A DNA stretch of 64,000 nucleotides, taken from the IMG/VR virus record IMGVR_UViG_3300020036_003099, positions 9,614 through 73,613 of that record. One strand, written 5' to 3'. Origin of the DNA: a virus (taxonomy: Duplodnaviria; Caudoviricetes). A model generated the notes under the pieces. That model made no database searches and was not told the origin of the DNA. It saw nothing but the letters and a program-made list of their open reading frames with translations. How positions within the stretch are numbered: position 1 is the first letter of the stretch; each line of letters starts with the position of its first letter. Shown piece by piece: positions 17,995 through 47,503 of this stretch. The translations under genes and the position numbers were made by a program.

Positions 17995-20196
17995 TTGAAA
18001 ATCAACTCTGACGAACACAAGTTGGAGACTGACGGATTCGATCAGTTCCAACAAAAAGGTTTTTCTATCAAACAATCTGCTAGAGCCTTTGAAGTCCTTT
18101 CCTCTAACCTCTACTCAAACAAAGTTAAAGCCATCGTGCGCGAACTGGGTTGCAATGCCTGGGACGCTCACGTTGAGCGAGAGAAGCTAAGGAAAAGAAA
18201 TCCTAAACACCCTCACTTGGCACCGTCTAACCAAGCGTTTGAGATCACCCTGCCTAATACGTGGTCCCCTATGTTTGTCATTAGGGACTACGGTATAGGT
18301 TTGTCTAACGAAGATGTTTTGGGTTTGTACACAACTTACTTTGGATCAACAAAAGAGCAAAGCAATGACACAATCGGAGCCTTTGGACTCGGTTCTAAAT
18401 CTCCGTTTTGTTATACCGATCAGTTCACTGTTACATCTTTCTTCAACGGTACTAAGTCAACTTACCAAGCTTTTATCGGTGAAGATGGTGCCCCCGCCAT
18501 CGCTTTGCTATCATCAGAGCCAACAAGTGAAAAGAATGGTATACAGATCTCTCTTTCAGCCAAAGCCTCTGATTTCAACTCTTTTAAAGATAACACTCAA
18601 GAGGTTTTCAAGTGGTTCACCACTGACAAGCCTTTGGTAAAGGGTCAAAACCCCTTTTGGTTATCCGAGCCTGAAGCTTTTAACGGTAAGAAATGGTCAC
18701 ATTTCTACAGAACCACCAACACCGTCTCTTTTTTTGTTAGGCAAGGGAACGTGGTTTATCTTGTAGATGTCGATTCGTTTTCTACGACTTCGCTATCACA
18801 AACGCACAAATCACTTTTAAAGTATAGTTTTGTCGTGGATGTTCCTATAGGTTCCGTAAATGTCACGGCTTCCAGGGAGCGTTTGAACTATGACCGCAAT
18901 ACAGAGGCGTATCTCGTGAAGATGCTGGACGGTATGCACAAAGAAATAGTTGATGATTTAAAAACCGAAATTAGTGATACAGACACACAATGGAAAGCTG
19001 TAGATTTTTTCAACAAAAGAATTAGACAAGACTCTTTTTATAGTCCCTTGGTTCAAGGCTTGTCTCTGAAAAACGGTTTAAAACTGGAGCACTGCTTGTT
19101 TTTTGATCTACGCAAAGAAACAAAGAATGTCGTGCCAGACCCAAAAGATCCCACAAAAACCTTAACAGTCACCACCAAAGAACCCGTTTTAACAATCTAT
19201 TTTAAAAGCTACCACAGACAAGACTCAATCACTTATGGTTCTTTTTCCCCTGGAGATTACACTTTAGTCTTCGATGATCTACACGTAAGCAGTTTCTGGC
19301 AAAAGTACGATTTAAACAGGGTTGTAGACGGTAAAAAAGTTTGGTTAATCCGCAGAGTAGACAAAAACATGTCCACCACAGACGCTTTAACCCTAATCTG
19401 TAAACAGTTCGGAGATGTTGACCCTAAAGAAATCCTTAAGTTCTCTTCTCTACCAGACCCCGTAAAAGCACCTAAACGCACGACTCAAACAAGAAAGCTT
19501 TTAAAGTTAAACCCTAGCAAGTCTGCTCAAAGAAGCTTCTGTTTTTGGGAGGACGCCACGCACGATATGTCTAAAGGTGGTTATTTTGTCTACACCTACG
19601 CAGGATCACCCGAAGGTTTCCCTTCAATAGGGACAGCTATAAACGAAGCCTACAGTTTAAATCTTTTAAACTCAGTGGAAGTCTTCGGGGTTCCCAGGGG
19701 CTCCAGAGATATGTTCAATAAAGACGTAGCCGCAAATGCTACAAAGTGGGAACCCTTTAAAACCTATTTAAAGGATCAAGTTTTGGCTTTTTCCAAAAAA
19801 TACGACTTTGAAAAAACCGCTGTTTTAAAAAGGGCTTTGTCACTTTTACCTTTAAAGTGGAGGGCAATTTATGGATTCATAACTTTACACAATTTAACTT
19901 GCTCAAAACAGATAATGTCAGCAGTTCAAGCTTACAATTTGTATCTAAAACTGGTTGAACCTGTCGTTTCCGCCTCGTTAACTATTAACAAGTACATCGC
20001 TTTAGGTCACGCAGTTGGTGTAGATGTTCAAGATGTTTTCTCCAGCGAACCTGAAAAAACTGAAAGTGACTACAAATTAGGGTTGACAAAAGAGACACAA
20101 AGCCTTAAAACAAAGTATCCGCTGGTGGATCTCCTTGATTTACCCGAGAAACCTACCCAGGAAGACCTGACCAACATCCAAGCCTATTTAAGCTGA
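17995..20196 (+). CDS. rIIA: rIIA-like protein (GHKL ATPase N-terminus)
   Basis: EVLSSNLYSNKVKAIVRELGCNAWDAH, IRDYGIGL, TTYFGSTK, GAFGLGSKSPF, VTASRERL. Confidence 0.9.
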   Translation: MKINSDEHKLETDGFDQFQQKGFSIKQSARAFEVLSSNLYSNKVKAIVRELGCNAWDAHVEREKLRKRNPKHPHLAPSNQAFEITLPNTWSPMFVIRDYGIGLSNEDVLGLYTTYFGSTKEQSNDTIGAFGLGSKSPFCYTDQFTVTSFFNGTKSTYQAFIGEDGAPAIALLSSEPTSEKNGIQISLSAKASDFNSFKDNTQEVFKWFTTDKPLVKGQNPFWLSEPEAFNGKKWSHFYRTTNTVSFFVRQGNVVYLVDVDSFSTTSLSQTHKSLLKYSFVVDVPIGSVNVTASRERLNYDRNTEAYLVKMLDGMHKEIVDDLKTEISDTDTQWKAVDFFNKRIRQDSFYSPLVQGLSLKNGLKLEHCLFFDLRKETKNVVPDPKDPTKTLTVTTKEPVLTIYFKSYHRQDSITYGSFSPGDYTLVFDDLHVSSFWQKYDLNRVVDGKKVWLIRRVDKNMSTTDALTLICKQFGDVDPKEILKFSSLPDPVKAPKRTTQTRKLLKLNPSKSAQRSFCFWEDATHDMSKGGYFVYTYAGSPEGFPSIGTAINEAYSLNLLNSVEVFGVPRGSRDMFNKDVAANATKWEPFKTYLKDQVLAFSKKYDFEKTAVLKRALSLLPLKWRAIYGFITLHNLTCSKQIMSAVQAYNLYLKLVEPVVSASLTINKYIALGHAVGVDVQDVFSSEPEKTESDYKLGLTKETQSLKTKYPLVDLLDLPEKPTQEDLTNIQAYLS

Positions 20197-20219
20197 GACC
20201 AGCTTTCCCTGTAAATCAA

Positions 20220-21167
20220 GTGTACCAAATACCCATGATGACCAAAATTCCTTACCTTTTAACCAACAAAGGTTTAACCCTCGTAATCGAAGGTAGGCCA
20301 CACAACGTATCTTCCGACAACAAACGTTTTAACGACATCATAGATGTCTTGAGAGAGCGTGACTACGAAGAAGCCAAAAGACTGGTTGATCTAGCTTCAC
20401 AAGTTGTTGCCAAATCCAAAGGTAGAATCACGATTAAAGACGGTGTTGTCTACGGCTCTAACGGCCAAGCCATCCACAACGCCTTGACTTCCCGTATGCT
20501 TCAAATGCTGGAGCTGGGCCTTGAAGTAGACCCCCTAATGCTCTTCATGGAACGCTTAGAGAAAAACCCTTCGTTTCGTTCAAGGGAACAACTCTTTGAG
20601 TTCCTGGAAGCTTGCGACCTACCTATCCTAGAAGATGGGCGGTTCCTGGCCTATCGCTCTGTTAAATCAGACTACTGGGACAAACACACAGGACGCTCTG
20701 CTTATTCCAAACCTTACAAAGACATGGACTTCTACGAGCGGGCTAAACTACCCCTTACACGCGGTAACGTGACAAGCGCTATCATTAACTTTGAAACTGT
20801 TGTCTCCATGGAGCGTACTGCTGTGGACGACGACCCTAATCGTACTTGCTCACACGGCCTCCATGTGTGCTCCCAAGGCTACGGTATGTACGGTGATCTT
20901 CTTTTGCACGTGGCTGTAGATCCTGCGGACGTTGTGTCTGTTCCTACGGATTATAACAACGCCAAAATGCGCGTCTGTAAATACGCAGTCCTAGAAGAGG
21001 CCCCACAAAACGCTTTTAAAACCTGGGATGTCCCCGTTTATACTTACAACGAGTACGTTGAAGACTTCTTTGGTGACGACGATACCGCTGAAGACTTCTA
21101 CGGAGATGAGGCCCCCGACAATACCGACTTCAAAGCCAAACTTCAGGCTTGGTTAGATTCCCAGTAA
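20220..21167 (+). CDS. rIIB: rIIB-like protein
   Basis: Follows rIIA; NPSFRSREQLFEFL, DGRFLAYRSV, CSHGLHV, DVVSVPTDYNNAKMRVCKY. Confidence 0.88.
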   Translation: MYQIPMMTKIPYLLTNKGLTLVIEGRPHNVSSDNKRFNDIIDVLRERDYEEAKRLVDLASQVVAKSKGRITIKDGVVYGSNGQAIHNALTSRMLQMLELGLEVDPLMLFMERLEKNPSFRSREQLFEFLEACDLPILEDGRFLAYRSVKSDYWDKHTGRSAYSKPYKDMDFYERAKLPLTRGNVTSAIINFETVVSMERTAVDDDPNRTCSHGLHVCSQGYGMYGDLLLHVAVDPADVVSVPTDYNNAKMRVCKYAVLEEAPQNAFKTWDVPVYTYNEYVEDFFGDDDTAEDFYGDEAPDNTDFKAKLQAWLDSQ

Positions 21168-21177
21168 GGTTACTCTT

Positions 21178-21567
21178 TTGCCTATACGATCAGCTGACTT
21201 TGTTTACAAAATATGGGACAAACAGAAAAAGAAGTACTGTGCGTCCACCAACCAAAGCGGGGAACACATGAACAACATGTGGACCTCGGTTGGCGCGGTA
21301 AAAAACCTTACCACCAAATGGTATCGGTGGTACTGTGAGTGGTACGTCAAAGAGTGCGACAGGTACATGCAAGGTTTAACCAAGCAGCACCCAGGAGACT
21401 TTGCAGCTACCAAAGGGGACAAATATGACGTTCACAGGTTTAAGTTAACCCACAAACTGGTTATTCCTTGGGATGCCAACGGTGTTCTCGATCCGCCTCC
21501 CGACGAAAGAAAGATGAGACGGAAAAGGAATGTCACAAAAACAAAGAAAAAAGCCACCAGGTTCTAG
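21178..21567 (+). CDS. Hypothetical protein
   Basis: 129-aa ORF, co-oriented. Confidence 0.5.
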   Translation: MPIRSADFVYKIWDKQKKKYCASTNQSGEHMNNMWTSVGAVKNLTTKWYRWYCEWYVKECDRYMQGLTKQHPGDFAATKGDKYDVHRFKLTHKLVIPWDANGVLDPPPDERKMRRKRNVTKTKKKATRF

Positions 21568-21784
21568 CGAACATTCAAAATATTCCTGGAAAGCCAATAA
21601 AAACTATACAGCTTGTATCTTCTTTGAGAACGAAGAGCTGGATGATTTCACCAAAACCCGACGAATAACCAAACGAAGGGATATTGCTATAGAGAAACTG
21701 GCTGATAGATTTATGGACGAATTAGAGTCTCACTTAGAAGAATTACCTGTGGATATCTATTTTAACTTGAAAGGTTTAAAATGA
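21530..21784 (+). CDS. Hypothetical protein
   Basis: 84 aa, coupled to neighbours. Confidence 0.5.
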   Translation: MSQKQRKKPPGSSEHSKYSWKANKNYTACIFFENEELDDFTKTRRITKRRDIAIEKLADRFMDELESHLEELPVDIYFNLKGLK

Positions 21785-22056
21785 CAGATCTAGAATTACA
21801 AGACAAACTTTATGCGTTGGTTAACAATCACCTTCAAACCAACAGCCCTGAAGCCCCTAGAGAAAGCGTCTTTGCCCTTTTTGCGGTTGTCATCCGACAC
21901 TGTTCTTTACTATCTCTTTTTGGTACCGACGAAACTATCTTAGCGGCTATTTTTGATGAATCTAAAAAAGAGTTCCTGCGTATCACTGCCGAAGCCAAAC
22001 GACAATTCACAGATTTAATAGAAGGAGAAACAGATGAAAATAAAACGACACACTAG
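21781..22056 (+). CDS. Hypothetical protein
   Basis: 91 aa, start/stop overlap with the previous gene. Confidence 0.55.
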   Translation: MTDLELQDKLYALVNNHLQTNSPEAPRESVFALFAVVIRHCSLLSLFGTDETILAAIFDESKKEFLRITAEAKRQFTDLIEGETDENKTTH

Positions 22057-22342
22057 CGGCAACGTTATTCATGCTCCGTTTGCCTTTCTAGATAACGAAA
22101 GTTTGATCCGGTATTATCGTGAGCGTATGGAAGAGCTGGCACTACTCCCCGAAGCGGGACCACCAGACAGCGCCTTAAACTACACGCTGGACTGGTTAGA
22201 GCGGGAAATAGACGACAGGTATAACACGCAACGCCTGACTTCTTTTGACATATATCGCCTGGGACAAACAACAATAAACAAAGCTGAAAAAAGTTCCAAA
22301 AAAATAAATTTAGGTGTTGACGAAGGACCCTCAGCGGCGTAG
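22034..22342 (+). CDS. Hypothetical protein
   Basis: 102 aa; its 3' end contains the promoter of the ncRNA array. Confidence 0.55.
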   Translation: MKIKRHTSGNVIHAPFAFLDNESLIRYYRERMEELALLPEAGPPDSALNYTLDWLEREIDDRYNTQRLTSFDIYRLGQTTINKAEKSSKKINLGVDEGPSAA

Positions 22343-22345
22343 AAA
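22317..22345 (+). promoter_or_regulatory. sigma70 promoter for the ncRNA array and Ro-like gene
   Basis: A-rich UP element, TTGACG-N17-TAGAAA; predicted +1 at about 22352-22354 coincides with the start of unit 1. Confidence 0.65.
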
Positions 22346-22353
22346 TAAACCTA

Positions 22354-22420
22354 ACGATTGACTGCAGCAAACAACCGCCGAAAGGCACTTGCATCAGGAG
22401 CAAACCAAAGTTCAATCCGT
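22354..22420 (+). ncRNA. Y-RNA-like unit 1
   Basis: Closing stem ACGATTGA/TCAATCCGT (bulged C), CTGCAGCAA motif, GCC-GAAA-GGC hairpin, TTGC-ATCAGGA-GCAA hairpin with a 7-nt loop. Confidence 0.6.
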
Positions 22421-22439
22421 ATCTAAAAGATTCAAATTA

Positions 22440-22499
22440 AGGGTTCTCTACAGCAAACTAAATAATTTTCACTTTCAATGAAAACCAAAAGTAGAACCT
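22440..22499 (+). ncRNA. Y-RNA-like unit 2 carrying a Glu(UUC)-like anticodon stem-loop
   Basis: Stem AGGGTTCT/AGAACCT, CTACAGCAA motif, TTTTCA-CTTTCAA-TGAAAA (loop CU-UUC-AA). Confidence 0.6.
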
Positions 22500-22550
22500 G
22501 TCACCTATCTGGTAAAAAGTACACTATACCTAAATATTTGAAACGCTAAA

Positions 22551-22665
22551 GGGCTAGTTCCAGCATATAATTTGCTCTTGTAAAGCAGAGGTTGTTGGTT
22601 CGAGTCCAACCAGAGGGCGAAAGCCTGATGTAGCTCAATTGGTCGAGCGCTAAAAAAACTAGCCC
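22551..22665 (+). ncRNA. Y-RNA-like unit 3 with circularly permuted tRNA-Thr(UGU)-like domain
   Basis: Perfect 9-bp stem GGGCTAGTT/AACTAGCCC, TCCAGCAT motif, then anticodon arm (CU-UGU-AA), variable loop, T arm, acceptor stem capped by GAAA, D arm; no CCA end. Confidence 0.75.
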
Positions 22666-22685
22666 GTTAGGGTTTCAAATATAAA

Positions 22686-22832
22686 ACGTATGTCTACAGC
22701 AACGGCCCTTTTCCTTTTGGAAAAGACGCCAACTAATTTCCTCGCCTGAGGATGTAGCTCAGCTGGTTAGAGCGCCTGGTCAAAAGCTTGGAGGACGTTG
22801 GTTCGAATCCAACCATTAAAACAACATACCGT
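22686..22832 (+). ncRNA. Y-RNA-like unit 4 with degenerate tRNA body
   Basis: Stem ACGTATGT/ACATACCGT (bulged C), CTACAGCAA motif, two hairpins, then intact D arm and T arm with a defective anticodon arm and only a 3-4 bp acceptor stem. Confidence 0.68.
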
Positions 22833-22866
22833 ATATTACCTAACAAATTAAAAAAGGGGACCAATT

Positions 22867-24324
22867 ATGACGAACTCACCTATCTTCAAAAACGCAATCA
22901 GAAACACACCAGTTAAAGCTTTAACAGCCAACGGCGCTATCACAAACGCGTCTTCTTTGGACCCCTTGGTAGACCTCTTCTTTGTTATCGGCTCTGCTAG
23001 AAACATGTCCGATGCACAACTCTTCCCTATGTTTGAAAAGGCTCTCGCAGAGGACAAGGTTAACACCCTTAAGATGCTCTTTTGGGCCCGTGACATACGT
23101 GGCGGCTCAGGTGAAAGAAAAACCTTTGTCAGGCTTTTCAACTATCTATATAAGCATTACGACTACGAAATGGATGCTATTAGCTTAATCGGTCTTATCC
23201 CCACGTTCGGTAGATTTAAAGATCTTATTGAGTCTTTGCCCCCTGAGGTCGCCGCTGCGTTCCTCTTAAAAGGTATCTCTGCGAAGAACGGCTTGGCTGC
23301 TAAATGGTCCCCGCGTAAAGGTCCTGTGTTCAACGACATGAGAAAGATCCTTAATGTTACCCCTAAAGCCCTCCGTAAAGCCCTTGTGGAGCTCACCAAG
23401 GTGGTTGAAACACAAATGTGTGCGAAACAGTGGGATCAGATTATCTTTGACCACGTGCCTTCTGTGGCTGCTGCTAGATACCAAAAGGCTTTCTCGAAGC
23501 ACCAGCCCGAGCGCTACAAAGCCTACAGGGATGCCCTTAACTCCAAAGACCCTGCTGTAAAGGCTACCGCTAAGATCAACGCTAGCGCTATCTTTCCCCA
23601 CGATGTCCTTAAAAGTCTTCATTTGGGTGATGCAGGGGTTGCTACGGCTCAATGGGAAGCTTTACCCGATTACCTAGGGGACAACAAGATCATCCCTGTT
23701 TGTGACGTATCCGGCTCCATGACTTGCCAAGTTGGTGGTAACCCTAATCTGCGGTGTATCGATATTTGCGTCTCTTTAGGTCTCTACATAGCCGATAAGC
23801 AAAAGGGAGCCTTTAAAGACATTTTCTGCACGTTCTCTTCGAAACCTTCTTTGGAGGTTCTTAAGGGCAACATCGCGCAAAAAGTACGTCAACTAAACGC
23901 CGCCCACTGGGAGATGTCCACCAACGTCGAAGGAGCCTTTAGAGCTATCCTTAAAATGGCTGTGGAGAACAAGGTACCTGCCTCGGACATGCCTAAAATG
24001 CTGCTAATCTTCTCAGATATGGAGTTTAACCCCTCAACAGTGTCTGGATTGACCAATCAGCAAGTCGCTGAAGGATACTTCAAGGCTGCTGGATACAAAT
24101 TACCTAAAATTGTTTACTGGAATCTAAACGCTAGACCAGGCAACAACCCCGTAACGATCCGCGAAGATGGTGTTTGTCTGGTCTCAGGGTTTTCCCCTTC
24201 GATCCTTAAAGCTATCCTGGCTGGTTCTGAAGCCATAGAAGACGACTTTTCACCTAGGGCTATCATGATGAAAACCCTTAATGACCCGCGTTACGCGGTG
24301 GTGGAGGAACTCTTGAAAAAATGA
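22867..24324 (+). CDS. TROVE/Ro60-like helical domain plus vWA protein (DUF2828-type)
   Basis: TANGA, LVDLFF, FWARDIRGGSGERKTF, FGRFKDL, LAAKWSPR; vWA MIDAS VCDVSGSM, STN, FSDMEF, VYWNL, VSGFSP. Confidence 0.8.
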   Translation: MTNSPIFKNAIRNTPVKALTANGAITNASSLDPLVDLFFVIGSARNMSDAQLFPMFEKALAEDKVNTLKMLFWARDIRGGSGERKTFVRLFNYLYKHYDYEMDAISLIGLIPTFGRFKDLIESLPPEVAAAFLLKGISAKNGLAAKWSPRKGPVFNDMRKILNVTPKALRKALVELTKVVETQMCAKQWDQIIFDHVPSVAAARYQKAFSKHQPERYKAYRDALNSKDPAVKATAKINASAIFPHDVLKSLHLGDAGVATAQWEALPDYLGDNKIIPVCDVSGSMTCQVGGNPNLRCIDICVSLGLYIADKQKGAFKDIFCTFSSKPSLEVLKGNIAQKVRQLNAAHWEMSTNVEGAFRAILKMAVENKVPASDMPKMLLIFSDMEFNPSTVSGLTNQQVAEGYFKAAGYKLPKIVYWNLNARPGNNPVTIREDGVCLVSGFSPSILKAILAGSEAIEDDFSPRAIMMKTLNDPRYAVVEELLKK

Positions 24325-24404
24325 AATCTACTCAAAACTAAACCACACTACAAACGATAAAAACTAAAAAAATCAAGTCTAAGTAAAAGAGAACTTAGGC
24401 GTAC

Positions 24405-24737
24405 ATGTACGTGCGGAATTTTCGCGTAATGACAAGTATTAAAGTCTACAACCATAAAATCCGTCTAGAAGATAACGGAGCCTTTAAATACGAAAGGGAA
24501 ACAATCGAATCCAACGCCCTCTTTTTGGAAGAGACCTTAGAAAAACTTCTTTTGGCAGAGAAGCGTTGGCAGTATAAAAGATACACCAAAAAAGGTAAAA
24601 CCTCTGAAGCTGATATCTTGGCTTTCAAAGCAGCTGACGAGAAACTAAGGGATATCCAAAGGGGTATCAACGAAGTAAACGAAAAGGCCAACATTATCTG
24701 GAAAGATATTGCAGCTGGTAAAAGATTGGAAACTTAA
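24405..24737 (+). CDS. Hypothetical protein
   Basis: 110-aa coiled-coil-like ORF. Confidence 0.5.
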   Translation: MYVRNFRVMTSIKVYNHKIRLEDNGAFKYERETIESNALFLEETLEKLLLAEKRWQYKRYTKKGKTSEADILAFKAADEKLRDIQRGINEVNEKANIIWKDIAAGKRLET

Positions 24738-24996
24738 AATGGGAGTAAACACCTTGAACACAGAAAACCTACCTAACACTGCGGACGCTATCATAAAAAA
24801 GCTTTTGGTTGATTTGCGTGAAATGGAATCTCTCAACGAGAAGCTGCGCTGGCGGTGTAAAAATCAAAAGCGTGAAATCCGTAACTTGAACAAAACTGTT
24901 TTGGCTCAGAAATACCTAGTGCTAACCGCACAGTCTGACGCTAAAGAAGCTTCTGTTGAAAAACTGAAAGGTTTACGTAGTTTAGTTAAAGGATAG
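24709..24996 (+). CDS. Hypothetical coiled-coil protein
   Basis: 95 aa. Confidence 0.5.
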   Translation: MQLVKDWKLKMGVNTLNTENLPNTADAIIKKLLVDLREMESLNEKLRWRCKNQKREIRNLNKTVLAQKYLVLTAQSDAKEASVEKLKGLRSLVKG

Positions 24997-24998
24997 AA

Positions 24999-25193
24999 GT
25001 GACACCAGAGTTTACTGCCCTATTGACTTTTAAAGCTGCTCTTATAAAGTTGAAATGGGAATGGCGAAAAAAGTTTGAACATCTTTTTACTGAGTATTTA
25101 GAAGACACTGTTAAAGAAGCACAACAAGACGTGGATGATCGAATAGCAACCCTAAAGGAAACCTTAAGCGATGGAAACGAAAACGATACTTAA
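24999..25193 (+). CDS. Hypothetical protein
   Basis: 64 aa, operon-packed. Confidence 0.5.
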   Translation: MTPEFTALLTFKAALIKLKWEWRKKFEHLFTEYLEDTVKEAQQDVDDRIATLKETLSDGNENDT

Positions 25194-25353
25194 AGAAGTC
25201 TACTCTAAAACTATTCACAATTTATTTTGGGTAGGTGTGGGAATTCTCTTGACTATATTCGTGTTACCAAGTAAAACATTTCCACCACTAGACGAAAGAC
25301 TAGAGCTGTCCTGGAATAAAGACGGTTCGCCTAACAAAAACCCAGTTAACTAA
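25171..25353 (+). CDS. Small membrane protein
   Basis: One TM segment (LFWVGVGILLTIFVL). Confidence 0.5.
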   Translation: METKTILKEVYSKTIHNLFWVGVGILLTIFVLPSKTFPPLDERLELSWNKDGSPNKNPVN

Positions 25354-25367
25354 AAAGGAAATAAATA

Positions 25368-25988
25368 ATGAACAACCCACAATACGCACACAAAAACGTT
25401 ATCACTGTTGACCAAGCAAAAGAATACGATCACTACATTTTGATTGATCAATCCGGTTCCATGGGTTCGCCCTCAACTAAAATGCAAGGCAAATCCCGCT
25501 GGCAAGAAGCCCAAGAGTTCACAGAAGGCTACGCTCGTTTTGCCGAACAAGTTGACGATGATGGTTTGACGGTTATCACCTTTAACTCTTCTTGTAAGGT
25601 TTACGATGGTGTCAAAGCTGATAAAGTAACGTCTATCTTCGCAAACTCCCCTATGGGTTCCACCAACTTGGCGGCTGCTTTGGAAGCGGCTTTCAAGAAG
25701 AAGTTTTCTGGGTCTAAAAAAGCAATCATGATGGTTTTGACGGATGGCTCACCTGATGACCGTCAAGCCGTTATCCAGTCCATTGAACGGGCCTCTAACA
25801 AACTTGACCGAGACGAAGAGCTGGCTATTCAGTTTATTCAAATTGGCGATGATTCAGGCGCTAAGCAATTCCTGGCAAAACTTGATGACGACCTAAAAGG
25901 CAAGTTTGACATTGTTAACTCTTTGACGCGTGAAGAAGCCGAGAGCCTGACGATTGAAGAACTTCTCTGGCAAGCTCTCAACGATTAG
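25368..25988 (+). CDS. vWA domain protein (Ter-cluster type)
   Basis: MIDAS IDQSGSM, GSTNLAAAL, VLTDGSPDD, FIQIGDD, KLDDDL. Confidence 0.88.
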   Translation: MNNPQYAHKNVITVDQAKEYDHYILIDQSGSMGSPSTKMQGKSRWQEAQEFTEGYARFAEQVDDDGLTVITFNSSCKVYDGVKADKVTSIFANSPMGSTNLAAALEAAFKKKFSGSKKAIMMVLTDGSPDDRQAVIQSIERASNKLDRDEELAIQFIQIGDDSGAKQFLAKLDDDLKGKFDIVNSLTREEAESLTIEELLWQALND

Positions 25989-26102
25989 TCGTTTCTAAGA
26001 TTCCGCTAACACCGGAAAAGCTAAGGGTACCGGACAAGAGTACCCAGCGGGTCCTGCTAAAGTGCCAACTGTTACTTTCACAACTAAAAAGGAGATTAAA
26101 CT

Positions 26103-26699
26103 ATGAATAACCCCGCTCAAGCAGCTGCCCCTTTGACTTTCGACATTGTACCCAAAGGCGTAACTGTAGAAGTTAAAGACAAAGCCGGTCAAACTTTCTC
26201 TAAACTGTACGTAGGTGCAGGTTGGGATATGGCTGGATCTGCCTCTGTAGACCTTGACCTTGTTGGTGCTTGCCTCGTGAACGGTAAACTGACAGCTCAA
26301 ACACGTTTGGTTTACTTTGGTGATAAAACAGAGCCAGGTGTTACGTTGTCTGCTGATAACACAACAGGAGCCGGTGACGGTGACGATGAATCCATGGTTA
26401 TCGATCTGGATAAAGTTGAAGCTGAAATCACGTCTATTGCCATCGGTATCATTGCCTACGCTGGCGCTGATATTTCAACGGCTAAGAACGTTCACTTTAG
26501 AGTTTGCAACGGCTCTACCACAAGTGATCCACAAGTTTTCGATGTACCTATGAACCAAGCAACTGCAGGTGACACCGTGCTTCACGCGGCTAACCTTGTC
26601 AGAGGCGCTGGTGGCTGGTCTATCGAGAATGTCTCCAGTTTCTATCAAAAAGGTAACGGGACAGCTGCGGTACAAGGTTTTGCGGGACTATTCGCATAA
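26103..26699 (+). CDS. terD: TerD-family stress protein
   Basis: VGAGWD...DLDLVGA, LVYFGD, DNTTGAGDGDDESMVIDL, GGWSIEN. Confidence 0.88.
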   Translation: MNNPAQAAAPLTFDIVPKGVTVEVKDKAGQTFSKLYVGAGWDMAGSASVDLDLVGACLVNGKLTAQTRLVYFGDKTEPGVTLSADNTTGAGDGDDESMVIDLDKVEAEITSIAIGIIAYAGADISTAKNVHFRVCNGSTTSDPQVFDVPMNQATAGDTVLHAANLVRGAGGWSIENVSSFYQKGNGTAAVQGFAGLFA

Positions 26700-42254: not shown

Positions 42255-44075
42255 ATGAAACAACTTTCTCTCTTTCCCGACCTTCTTTACCAACCCTTTC
42301 AAGCCGACTATACCGGTTTCTCTCAATTCAACGGTGAGCCCCGTAGAATCCTCATAAACTTCGAAAGAGATAAGCTTTTAAGCGAAGCCGGTATCGCAAC
42401 TATGAAGGACCGTTATTTGGTCCCTGGAGAGGAATACCCTCAGGAAGCCTTTGCAAGAGCCGCTTGCGCCTTTTCCAGCAGCAACGCTCATGCACAGCGC
42501 CTGTATGACTACGTATCCAAATGCTGGTTTATGTTCGCGACTCCCTTGCTTTCCAACGGGGGAACCGACAGGGGCTTACCTATCAGCTGCTTTTTGAACC
42601 AAACAGATGACTCTATCGTAGGGCTGGGTAACCATTACGCCGAGAACCTGCTTCTAAGCACCTCTGGAGGCGGTATAGGCACTGACTGGAGCCTTGTACG
42701 CTCGGTTAACACAGCGACCTCAAAGGGCAATAAAACGACTGGTATCGTTCCTTTTATCAAAACAGCGGACAGTTTGATCCAAGCCTCCTGGCAAGGGTCT
42801 ACCCGCAGGGGTGCCTTGGCGGTAAACCTTCGTATTGACCACCCAGAGATCGAGGAGTTCATTGAAATCAGGAAGCCTACAGGGGATGCCAACAGACGCT
42901 CCCTCAACGTAAACAACGCTGTGGCCGTTACAGATGTCTTTATGGAGGCTGTGGAGAAGGGTGAGAGATGGGACCTTATAGACCCCCACACGAAGCTTAA
43001 AGTCAAGGACGTGGACGCCAGAGACCTGTGGATGAAGATCCTGGCTACGCGGGTGGCCACAGGGGAGCCTTACATCTTCTTTATCGACGCTGCAAACAGA
43101 GCTTTAAACCCTTCTTTAAAAGTCAAGGGTCACCTAATCAACACAACCAATCTTTGCACCGAGATTATGTTACCTACAAATCCAGACCGTACAGCTGTTT
43201 GTTGTTTATCTTCTGTGAACCTTGAGTATTACGATGACTGGAAAGACCACCCTTACTTCATTCACGACCTGATGGAGATGCTGGATAACGCTTTGGAGGT
43301 TTTCATTAAGAAAGCCCCTGAGGGTATGTGGAGAGCCGTGGAGAGCGCCCGTAACGAGAGATCTGTGGGTTTAGGAGCCATGGGCTTCCATTTGTACCTG
43401 CAGAAAAAAGGCATACCTTTCGAGAGTGGTTTAGCGTCTTCCCGTAACAGGGTTATCTTCTTTGATTTGCAAAGTAAATGTATCTCCGCAAATATAACCC
43501 TAGGAGACCTTAGGGGTAACGCTCCAGATATCGAAGGAACAGGCATGCGCTTTAGCCACATGAACGCTCTAGCACCTAACGCCTCTTCGTCGGTTATCTG
43601 CGCCAACACATCTCCTTCGATTGAACCCTACGCAGCCAACGCGTATACCCTAAAGACATCCTCAGGGGTTTTTCTAATCAAGAACAAAGCTTTTGATAAG
43701 CTGCTAAAAGAAAAATACAAAAAGTCGGAAAAAGAAGTTGACGAAATTTGGAACTCTGTTATTGTCAACGAAGGCTCAGTCCAGCACTTGGATTTTCTTG
43801 AACCTGCAGACAAAGACGTATTTAAAACAGCTAGAGAGATAGACCAACACTGGATTATTGATCACGCTGCATCCAGGCAACCGTATATCGACCAGGGACA
43901 GTCAGTAAACTTATTCTTGTCCCCAACCATCTCCAAATCTGATCTGAGAGCTTTACACAAAGCTGCTTGGACTAAAGGTTTAAAGTCCCTTTACTACGTA
44001 CGTTCGTCCTCGTCCCTAAAAACGGAAACGATCAGTCGCGTTAAAGAAGGTGGTTGCTTATCCTGCGAGGGTTAA
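42255..44075 (+). CDS. nrdA: Ribonucleotide reductase class Ia alpha subunit (no ATP cone)
   Basis: FATPLLSNGG, PISCF, GGIG, TNLCTEI, VCCLSS, APNASSS, IEP, DQGQS, LYYVR, terminal CLSCEG. Confidence 0.95.
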   Translation: MKQLSLFPDLLYQPFQADYTGFSQFNGEPRRILINFERDKLLSEAGIATMKDRYLVPGEEYPQEAFARAACAFSSSNAHAQRLYDYVSKCWFMFATPLLSNGGTDRGLPISCFLNQTDDSIVGLGNHYAENLLLSTSGGGIGTDWSLVRSVNTATSKGNKTTGIVPFIKTADSLIQASWQGSTRRGALAVNLRIDHPEIEEFIEIRKPTGDANRRSLNVNNAVAVTDVFMEAVEKGERWDLIDPHTKLKVKDVDARDLWMKILATRVATGEPYIFFIDAANRALNPSLKVKGHLINTTNLCTEIMLPTNPDRTAVCCLSSVNLEYYDDWKDHPYFIHDLMEMLDNALEVFIKKAPEGMWRAVESARNERSVGLGAMGFHLYLQKKGIPFESGLASSRNRVIFFDLQSKCISANITLGDLRGNAPDIEGTGMRFSHMNALAPNASSSVICANTSPSIEPYAANAYTLKTSSGVFLIKNKAFDKLLKEKYKKSEKEVDEIWNSVIVNEGSVQHLDFLEPADKDVFKTAREIDQHWIIDHAASRQPYIDQGQSVNLFLSPTISKSDLRALHKAAWTKGLKSLYYVRSSSSLKTETISRVKEGGCLSCEG

Positions 44076-47122: not shown

Positions 47123-47152
47123 TGTATACAAAGTAAAAACAAATAAACATAG

Positions 47153-47503
47153 GTGCAACATCTTACCCCGCGCCAAAGAAGGCGCTATCTAAAGAAACAA
47201 AACTACCGCTCATTCCTTGACTCATTAGTTTGTCAGATCTGCGGTCACGATAAACCCCATCACATAGAGCTTCATCACTTAGATCCAACTTCTAAGGAAG
47301 CCAACGTATCCAGACGAATTAACCAGTGCCAATCAGATGTCGCTATCATAACTGAGATTGAAAAGTGCGCTGCTTTGTGTTCTTATTGCCACAAGGATGT
47401 TCATAAGGGATTGCACAGCGATAAAATATTAGAACCGTTAAACTATATCGGTGTAGCACAGGGACAGTGCGCGGGTCTCCAAAACCTTGAGACGTTGGTT
47501 TGA
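47153..47503 (+). CDS. HNH homing-type endonuclease inside the tRNA cluster
   Basis: CQICG...ELHHLDP...EIEKCAALCSYCHKDVH. Confidence 0.85.
   Translation: MQHLTPRQRRRYLKKQNYRSFLDSLVCQICGHDKPHHIELHHLDPTSKEANVSRRINQCQSDVAIITEIEKCAALCSYCHKDVHKGLHSDKILEPLNYIGVAQGQCAGLQNLETLV

Follow-up and report, generated by a model that had tools for sequence, protein, structure and literature searches.

We report a locus in the genome of a virus (Duplodnaviria; Caudoviricetes) that we read, at a probability of roughly 70%, as a ribonucleoprotein system of Ro60/Y-RNA type in which both the protein branch and the RNA handle are new. The locus lies in IMG/VR virus record IMGVR_UViG_3300020036_003099, a complete record of 73,613 bp with direct terminal repeats, of which bases 9614-73613 were analyzed (64,000 nucleotides, hereafter the window; positions are those of the window unless another locus is named). 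It consists of four tandem RNA units (U1 to U4) and, behind them on the same strand, the gene for a Ro60-like protein of 485 aa (Table 1). The ends of each unit pair in a short terminal stem. This stem and the conserved unpaired letters beside it are here called the handle, and the variable sequence enclosed by the handle is called the cargo. An earlier reading, made from the letters alone (the sequence-only reading), had proposed a divergent Ro-like family that uses a stem-plus-CAGCA element on modular RNAs, and this proposal is supported by the strand-specific linkage of handle and gene and by the Ro60 fold of the protein. A megablast search of window positions 20000-26000 against deposited phages gave no match. 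A literature search found no paper on a stem-plus-CAGCAA RNA with DUF2828, one of the two families that make up the protein, and the RNA family was not found in Rfam 15.

Direct reading of the sequence confirmed that four units with terminal stems and the conserved motif stand where the sequence-only reading had placed them. All four are closed by a stem of 7-9 bp, which is followed by unpaired (C)U-N-CAGCA(A/U), and the bulged C that was said to be common to the 3' strands of U1 and U4 is indeed present in both. U1 and U4 also have the same AACG...C-CGUAU ends, and U2 and U3 have AAGGG...CC(U/C)GU ends in common. A descriptor made of a 7-bp stem, then 0-1 nt, then T-N-CAGCA recovers all four units inside 480 nt; elsewhere in the 64 kb it finds two places on the + strand and one on the - strand. 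Under RNAfold, the minimum-energy folds of U2, U3 and U4 contain the terminal stem; for U1, the centroid contains it. When folding energies are compared with those of shuffled sequences, only U3 is clearly better (z -2.9).

Table 1. The RNA array, the adjoining gene and the signals around them, in positions of the window. Stem arms and motifs are given as DNA, with the motif also as RNA.
Feature	Position	Strand	Description
Putative promoter (unproven)	22317-22345	+	TTGACG-N17-TAGAAA, letters present
Unit 1 (U1)	22353-22422; stem to stem 22354-22420	+	Handle RNA of ~70 nt; 8-bp stem with bulged C; 5' arm ACGATTGA (22354-22361); motif CTGCAGCAA (22362-22370; as RNA CUGCAGCAA); 3' arm TCAAT-C-CGT (22412-22420), bulged C at 22417; cargo a small GAAA-capped hairpin
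Unit 2 (U2)	22439-22503; stem to stem 22441-22499	+	Short handle RNA, 65 nt; 7-bp stem; 5' arm GGGTTCT (22441-22447); motif CTACAGCAA (22448-22456; as RNA CUACAGCAA); 3' arm AGAACCT (22493-22499); remainder an A/U-rich loop; 5' AAG, 3' UGU
Unit 3 (U3)	22549-22669; stem to stem 22551-22665	+	Long handle RNA, 121 nt; 9-bp stem; 5' arm GGGCTAGTT (22551-22559); motif (T)CCAGCAT, with CCAGCAT at 22560-22566 (as RNA UCCAGCAU); 3' arm AACTAGCCC (22657-22665); cargo: anticodon-arm-like hairpin (loop CUUGUAA), T arm, GAAA-capped hairpin, D arm
Unit 4 (U4)	22685-22833; stem to stem 22686-22832	+	Long handle RNA, 149 nt; 8-bp stem with bulged C; 5' arm ACGTATGT (22686-22693); motif CTACAGCAA (22694-22702; as RNA CUACAGCAA); 3' arm ACATA-C-CGT (22824-22832), bulged C at 22829; cargo: two hairpins and a tRNA-like body (D arm, anticodon-like arm, T arm) at 22752-22816, without acceptor stem
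Shine-Dalgarno-like AAGGGG	22854-22859	+	7 nt ahead of ATG
Ro60-like protein	22867-24324	+	485 aa; DUF2828 (helical-repeat ring part) and DUF7788 (vWA with MIDAS, the metal-ion-dependent adhesion site)

The association of the handle with the gene recurs in phages, bacteria and an archaeon, and it is strand-specific. A covariance model (R1) was built from 15 short units, namely U2 and 14 from other phage loci, and 77 viral loci were fetched whose homologues are 31-49% identical. In the 474 kb around these viral homologues, R1 has 113 matches at E<=1, with 113 on the gene's strand and 0 on the opposite one; at E<=0.01, matches occur in 43 of the 77 loci. Viral matches outside the training set include L010:2350-2419 (51.6 bits), L068:745-811 (48.6 bits) and L008:2434-2493 (47.1 bits). 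Furthermore, 80 bacterial and archaeal homologues, all outside the training, are accompanied by 50 matches at E<=0.1, 49 of them on the gene's strand and 1 on the opposite strand, and 31 of these 80 cellular loci have a match within 1 kb upstream of the gene. Whole records give the same association: 15 of the 17 matches in five whole phage records (515 kb) fall within ~4.3 kb of the gene, and 9 of the 10 matches in five whole cellular genomes (28.7 Mb; Chloroflexi, Cellvibrionaceae, Paludibacteraceae, Meiothermus and Woesearchaeota) lie directly upstream of it. The sequence-only reading had depended on finding stem-plus-CAGCA repeats upstream of homologues, and the covariance model clearly finds them there. 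Its description as a phage ribonucleoprotein system agrees with the linkage in phages but is too narrow, as the system also occurs in bacteria and an archaeon.

Within the window, R1 matches U3 (26.6 bits, E 3.6e-4) and U1 (14.5 bits, E 0.43), both of which are outside the training set, and it gives 52.9 bits for U2, which is a training member. No further convincing match was found in the window or in the whole 73.6-kb genome. A hairpin on the - strand at 43445-43503 has handle-like ends (CUAGGG...CCCUGUUA) without CAGCA (15.3 bits, E 0.27) and may be a chance likeness or a degenerate relative of the handle.

The genomic setting of the units differs between phages. In other phages, the gene is usually inside a tRNA array with the handle units between tRNA genes, and Felix O1-type phages have them downstream of the gene, again between tRNA genes. 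Such a position among tRNA genes beside the protein gene fits discrete, processed, stable RNAs. In the window, the tRNA cluster is 24 kb away from both the handle units and the gene, yet the units stand beside the gene, which speaks for an affiliation with the protein rather than with a tRNA operon as such. In phage wV8, the units fall in unannotated gaps and under a doubtful small open reading frame (ORF). This annotated hypothetical ORF (gene 48; L161, EU877232, 4968-5225, - strand) is on the opposite strand to the stretch that bears the third and fourth handle RNAs in closely related Felix O1-type loci, and it is probably a mis-call.

The handle is conserved as a base-paired structure. In an alignment of the 46 best R1 matches (A4), 322 of 322 stem cells pair, and each of the seven pairs has compensatory double changes. 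The number of double-change cells is 116, compared with 30 +/- 8.5 in shuffles, and pairing is at most 42% when the partner strand is slid by one to three columns. An independent MAFFT/RNAalifold analysis of seven long phage units recovered the terminal stem and, in addition, a T arm, both with covariation, and this long form with its T arm is conserved in very different phages. Near-invariant features are the first two pairs (A-U and G-C), the U-N-CAGCA motif and the 3' G(U)U. The consensus of alignment A2 and of R1 is aAAGG-stem-UUACAGCAAaCA...stem-CCUGUU, with which the row ends of the 46 A4 sequences agree.

The protein encoded behind the array has, by its structural model, the Ro60 fold over its full length, and it stands outside the TROVE sequence family. 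Its gene begins 34 nt past U4 as proposed, and the DVSGSM letters singled out by the sequence-only reading are residues 280-285. In Pfam, the protein matches DUF7788 (PF25043) with 161.8 bits (cut-off 27.1) and DUF2828 (PF11443) with 99.5 bits (cut-off 29), and it belongs to the family phrog_850 ('RNA-binding protein'; E 3.6e-132). A phmmer search against PDB sequences found no Ro60. An AlphaFold2 model was made from 27 homologues (predicted local distance difference test score, pLDDT, 87.7; predicted template-modelling score, pTM, 0.87), and its top PDB matches in Foldseek are all Ro60 entries, with E-values from 1.5e-8 to 4e-5. They comprise phiRo60 of phage phiLo, Xenopus and human Ro60 and Deinococcus Rsr; the best is phiRo60 (9KOP, E 1.5e-8), and Xenopus Ro60 reaches a template-modelling (TM) score of 0.60-0.63. 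VIA-align superposes 400 residues of the model on Xenopus Ro60 (2I91_B) with Z 23.5 and a root-mean-square deviation of 4.0; for matches to the vWA part alone, Z stops at about 11. In the 27 homologues, the MIDAS residues D280, S282, S284, T352 and D384 are invariant, and so are the basic residues R45, R75, R78, R84, K146 and R170, several of which belong to the helical part; similar motifs occur in the eukaryotic branch of the family. Of the proposal that the gene encodes a TROVE-like protein with a vWA domain, the Ro60 fold and the intact MIDAS therefore stand, but a TROVE sequence match does not. The comparison of a predicted structure with Ro60 had been suggested as a check, and it returned the full fold.

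The family to which this protein belongs is very large. It has at least 6,984 clusters at 90% identity, and 9,632 clusters at 50% identity (E<=1e-3), with members also in bacteria and archaea. Homologues with DUF2828/DUF7788 are present in 702 of 50,697 deposited phage genomes, and the holders include Felix O1-type, KVP40-type, Listeria, Staphylococcus, Campylobacter and mycobacterial phages; in mycobacteriophages, the protein is already annotated as 'Ro-like RNA binding protein'. Eukaryotic DUF2828 proteins are found in dinoflagellates, plants, green algae, fungi, Naegleria and a mite. In some members (P0121, P0122, P0123, P0135 and P0148), DUF2828/DUF7788 is joined to a further domain: RecQ helicase, a 2H domain like that of 2'-5' RNA ligases (PF13563), a zinc knuckle of CCHC type, or KH. 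Judged from domain content, these fusions are consistent with work on nucleic acids, mostly RNA.

The cargo differs from unit to unit. U4 has an Rfam tRNA match of 39.9 bits at 22752-22816, above the gathering score, which covers model positions 5-66. U3 gives a partial tRNA match (19.4 bits, positions 8-63) and a match to YrlA (RF02553) of 25.5 bits, which is limited to model positions 24-84, that is, to the core of T arm, hairpin and D arm. For U1 and U2, the Rfam scan detected no tRNA part. The claim that all four units carry tRNA-derived cargo thus holds for U3 and U4 but not for U1 and U2. The YrlA-core match of U3, taken with its anticodon-arm-like hairpin, points to a circularly permuted tRNA-like body on the handle. 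The YrlA-type module of T arm, capped acceptor-like hairpin and D arm is present in U3, and its T arm covaries across 7 phage sequences; the U3 score, however, is below the YrlA gathering score of 69 bits. Another phage locus (L013) has YrlA matches of 39.1 and 29.6 bits. The YrlA motif GNCGAA(N)G was not found near the 5' end of the units, where U-N-CAGCA stands instead. Two other places, GCCGAAAG in U1 (22376-22383) and GGCGAAAG in U3 (22616-22623), fit GNCGAA(N)G, but they lie in GAAA-capped hairpins of the cargo. The same feature also occurs at L013:1887-2003, and locus L005 has a UUCG loop instead.

Several known Ro60 systems are close to this arrangement, and each of them differs from it in definite ways. 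Rsr-YrlA and Rsr-Y RNA-PNPase particles have been described, and YrlA has a permuted tRNA-like architecture (PMC4201824). The Rsr-YrlA/YrlB systems of bacteria and mycobacteriophages (Chen et al. 2014, PMC4201824) likewise combine a ring protein of Ro60 fold and a vWA part with MIDAS with one or more small RNAs encoded beside its gene, and their RNAs are modular, with a protein-binding terminal region and an effector domain. YrlA also resembles the long form described here in its permuted tRNA-like body of T arm, capped acceptor-like hairpin and D arm. In contrast to Rsr and other TROVE proteins, however, the protein here is of DUF2828/DUF7788 type, with 11-17% identity to solved Ro60 proteins; the handle is a stem with unpaired U-N-CAGCA(A), whereas YrlA has GNCGAA(N)G; and, unlike YrlA, many units are short and lack a tRNA-like part, with up to four or more copies per locus. 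The Thermus phage phiLo encodes phiRo60, which binds the two upstream-encoded Y-like RNAs Yrl1 and Yrl2 and assembles with host PNPase (PMC12135203; PDB 9KOP, 9L5Y). This is again a phage-encoded protein of Ro60 fold with partner RNAs just upstream, and it is the best Foldseek match of our model, but phiRo60 is deposited as a TROVE-domain protein, and its RNAs are two in number and have a canonical CGAA bulge and no CAGCAA handle. Metazoan Ro60 is alike in fold (Z 21-23.5 to Xenopus and human Ro60), and metazoan Y RNAs are alike in their terminal stem, which the 5' end forms with the 3' end, and in a bulged C in the helix as in U1 and U4. They differ from the units in having another conserved element, no similarity in RNA sequence and dispersed Pol III genes. 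In addition, ROT/TROVE proteins of jumbo phages have been interpreted as an RNA-repair platform with a tRNA-like partner, and the handle RNA family is not described there (Iyer et al. 2021, PMC7824862).

From these observations we infer transcription, processing, direct binding, a role of the cargo and a biological function along the following lines, in a working model borrowed from the Rsr-YrlA/PNPase and phiRo60-Yrl systems, with CAGCAA in place of CGAA as the recognition element. The four units are probably co-transcribed with the gene, because a terminator scan between U4 and the gene found none. Host RNases would then cut the units out of the precursor. In each unit, the ends would pair in the stem of 7-9 bp, with U-N-CAGCA(A) on the 5' side and G(U)U on the 3' side forming the handle, and the DUF2828/DUF7788 ring protein would recognize this handle as Ro60 holds the terminal stem region of a Y RNA. 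Between the handle strands, an exchangeable cargo would be presented, which may be a loop or hairpin (U1, U2), a permuted tRNA-like body (U3) or a tRNA body without acceptor stem (U4). If Rsr-YrlA and phiRo60-Yrl are a guide, this cargo would serve as a gate for the ring or as its tether to host enzymes that bind tRNA or degrade RNA, for example PNPase. The result would be a device for the surveillance, repair or decay of RNA, probably tRNA, that serves the phage early in infection. A role of the units against host anticodon nucleases, which the sequence-only reading proposed, is speculation.

Several points weigh against the Ro60/Y-RNA-type reading. On the side of the protein, Pfam TROVE has no match to the 485 aa at E<=0.1, and a profile comparison with the solved Ro60 structures (9L5Y, 9KOP) reaches only E 0.017 over 41 residues of the vWA part. 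On the side of the RNA, alignment A4 was fitted to the model, which biases it towards pairing, and the handle is unlike the element that Ro60 is known to bind (GNCGAA(N)G or CGAA; PMC4201824, PMC12135203), so that a Ro60-like binding geometry is not to be assumed. Expression, processing and binding of these RNAs in this phage are what we infer; a search for sequencing runs listed two DNA runs, with a small share of the sequence words, and no RNA run. Furthermore, R1 has no match at E<=0.01 around 34 of the 77 viral homologues, and the 1 kb upstream of 49 of the 80 cellular homologues is without a match at E<=0.1; the model may be too narrow, the flanks may be too short, or the handle may truly be absent there. 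Finally, units placed in the 5' leader of the gene without a terminator fit cis-acting regulation equally well.

This last point leads to an alternative in which the array is a cis-acting leader. The DUF2828 protein or another factor would bind the structured 5' untranslated region of its own mRNA and control translation or stability, and no RNAs would be released. The end of U4 only 34 nt before the start codon, the lack of an intervening terminator and the 31 of 80 cellular loci with same-strand matches within 1 kb upstream are all as expected from such a leader. However, the units of Felix O1-type phages are downstream of the gene, other phages have additional copies 2-6 kb away from it, and four or more copies with differing tRNA-like cargos exceed the needs of an autoregulatory operator. 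The nearest analogues, YrlA and Yrl1/2, moreover act in trans although they too are encoded beside the protein gene (PMC4201824, PMC12135203). Taken together, we regard a cis-acting leader as improbable.

The handle could also be a processing or stability signal for a factor other than the DUF2828 protein, such as a host RNase, an RRM or La-type protein or Hfq. Its link to DUF2828 would then arise through common modules of tRNA and RNA metabolism, with the protein acting on other RNAs. Units embedded in tRNA arrays in many phages would be at home in such modules, cleavage might take place at the conserved AAG and GUU flanks, and a very similar RNA of Dictyostelium, DdR-21 of Class I, is directly bound by the RRM protein Rnp1A/CIBP (PMC7919456). 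A general host-factor signal, however, should occur elsewhere in the cellular genomes, where 9 of 10 genome-wide matches are instead directly upstream of the gene, and the units of the window adjoin the gene even though its tRNA cluster is 24 kb away; this explanation, too, is quite unlikely. A third explanation, in which the units have no function of their own and are tRNA genes in decay or leftover repeats whose inverted ends arose by chance, is hardly credible. In its favor, U3 and U4 contain tRNA-derived arms, and the folding energies of U1, U2 and U4 do not surpass those of shuffled sequences. Against it stand the full covariation of the stem in 46 sequences, an unpaired motif that does not vary, strand biases of 113 to 0 and 49 to 1, and conservation of the family from phages to an archaeal metagenome-assembled genome; the comparative data thus already contradict it.

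The short units of the Ro60/Y-RNA-type system proposed here resemble the Class I RNAs of Dictyostelium. These are RNAs of 42-65 nt in which a 6-bp stem joins the ends and the remainder is variable, and the literature describes them as confined to Dictyostelia (Kjellin et al. 2021, PMC7919456). U2 aligns to the full length of the Rfam model RF01414, a Dictyostelium-only model, with 30.1 bits (E 0.0015), and full-length matches also occur at L007:2412-2466 (30.0 bits) and L024:4374-4430 (26.9 bits). All three scores are below the gathering score of 41.5, and this is a likeness, not membership. The two groups have in common a length of 42-65 nt, an end-joining stem of 6-7 bp, conserved in structure and not in sequence, and an A/U-rich variable remainder; both also include a small number of long members that contain structured inserts (DdR-66 and DdR-67 among the Class I RNAs). 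Directly past the 5' arm, Class I RNAs have CCUUACAGCAA (the 11-nt type), compared with (C)UACAGCAA here; the invariant dictyostelid positions U, C, C, A and A are invariant in the phage set as well, and the conserved ends AAG...CUGU correspond to aAAGG...CCUGUU here. A curated Class I example from D. discoideum reads GTTGAC-CTTACAGCAA...GTCAAC-TG. In contrast, the linker here is one nucleotide shorter, and Class I RNAs are eukaryotic RNAs with promoters of their own, marked by the Dictyostelium upstream sequence element (DUSE), that are not known near any DUF2828 gene. A DUSE promoter ~60 nt upstream in a dictyostelid genome, which is a criterion for the class, does not apply to the present units, whose source is a phage genome.

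Could Class I RNAs then be eukaryotic handle RNAs whose core partner is a DUF2828/DUF7788 protein, within an ancient Y-RNA-like particle of phages, bacteria, archaea and eukaryotes? This idea is drawn from the matching stem, motif, invariant positions and both ends, together with the presence of DUF2828 in plants, fungi, green algae, dinoflagellates and Naegleria, and we hold it as a tentative one that is rather unlikely to be true. The only proven direct binder of a Class I RNA is the RRM protein Rnp1A (PMC7919456). Proteins pulled down with DdR-21 are GuaB, NdkC, Rnp1A/CIBP and DDB_G0281243, of which the last is of uncharacterized function and has orthologues in all dictyostelids examined (bioRxiv 10.1101/2020.04.05.026054); DDB_G0281243 is a candidate DUF2828-type partner of Class I RNA. 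No dictyostelid DUF2828 protein was among the best 120 of 378 word-index matches to a eukaryotic query, none with Dictyostelium-like composition was among the best 150 matches to a eukaryote profile, and motif searches in partial proteomes of D. discoideum and D. firmibasis found none. If the Class I link is true, it would give abundant RNAs that were first reported in 2004 a candidate core protein and a testable function.

The sequence-only reading had also placed a promoter ahead of U1. Its letters are present (Table 1), but the proposed -10 element is without its final T, the candidate is absent from the list of a sigma-70 scan, and a looser form of the pattern, with 2 matches in the window against 0.47 expected, is insufficiently rare; the promoter is thus unproven. 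The TAG of the proposed -10 element is the stop codon of the upstream ORF 22034-22342. Farther upstream of the array, at 17995-21167 (+), are genes for an rIIA-like (733 aa) and an rIIB-like (315 aa) protein, which therefore place the locus in an early-gene region. Downstream, 25368-25988 (+) encodes a vWA protein of TerF type (PF10138, PF13519) and 26103-26699 (+) a TerD-domain protein; these genes, 1-2 kb beyond the Ro60-like gene, look like an abbreviated Ter (tellurite-resistance-type) module. As a whole, the gene neighbors, that is, rIIA and rIIB upstream, small ORFs without a known family, and TerF-like and TerD genes downstream, give no functional hint.

Two further observations concern RNA elements and gaps. 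In the tRNA cluster of the window, a 324-nt gap between tRNA-Cys and tRNA-Trp (47150-47450, +) contains a putative small ORF with Cys/His pairs like those of HNH homing endonucleases, as read by eye, and a scan of this gap for RNA families gave no match. In two phage contigs of ~150 kb, matches to the c-di-GMP-I-GGC riboswitch model follow directly after the Ro60-like gene (L067:3973-4046 and L068:3997-4070; 55-56 bits, with a gathering score of 59).

DUF2828/DUF7788 is a very large family without an assigned function, and a conserved partner RNA would make it a testable ribonucleoprotein. The Ro60/Y-RNA paradigm would thereby extend to a second protein branch with a different recognition element, and handle RNAs would account for gaps that lack annotation in the tRNA arrays of phages. 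The exchangeable tRNA-like cargos point to a programmable adaptor, by which a ring-shaped binder of RNA would be connected, during infection, with enzymes that handle tRNA or degrade RNA.

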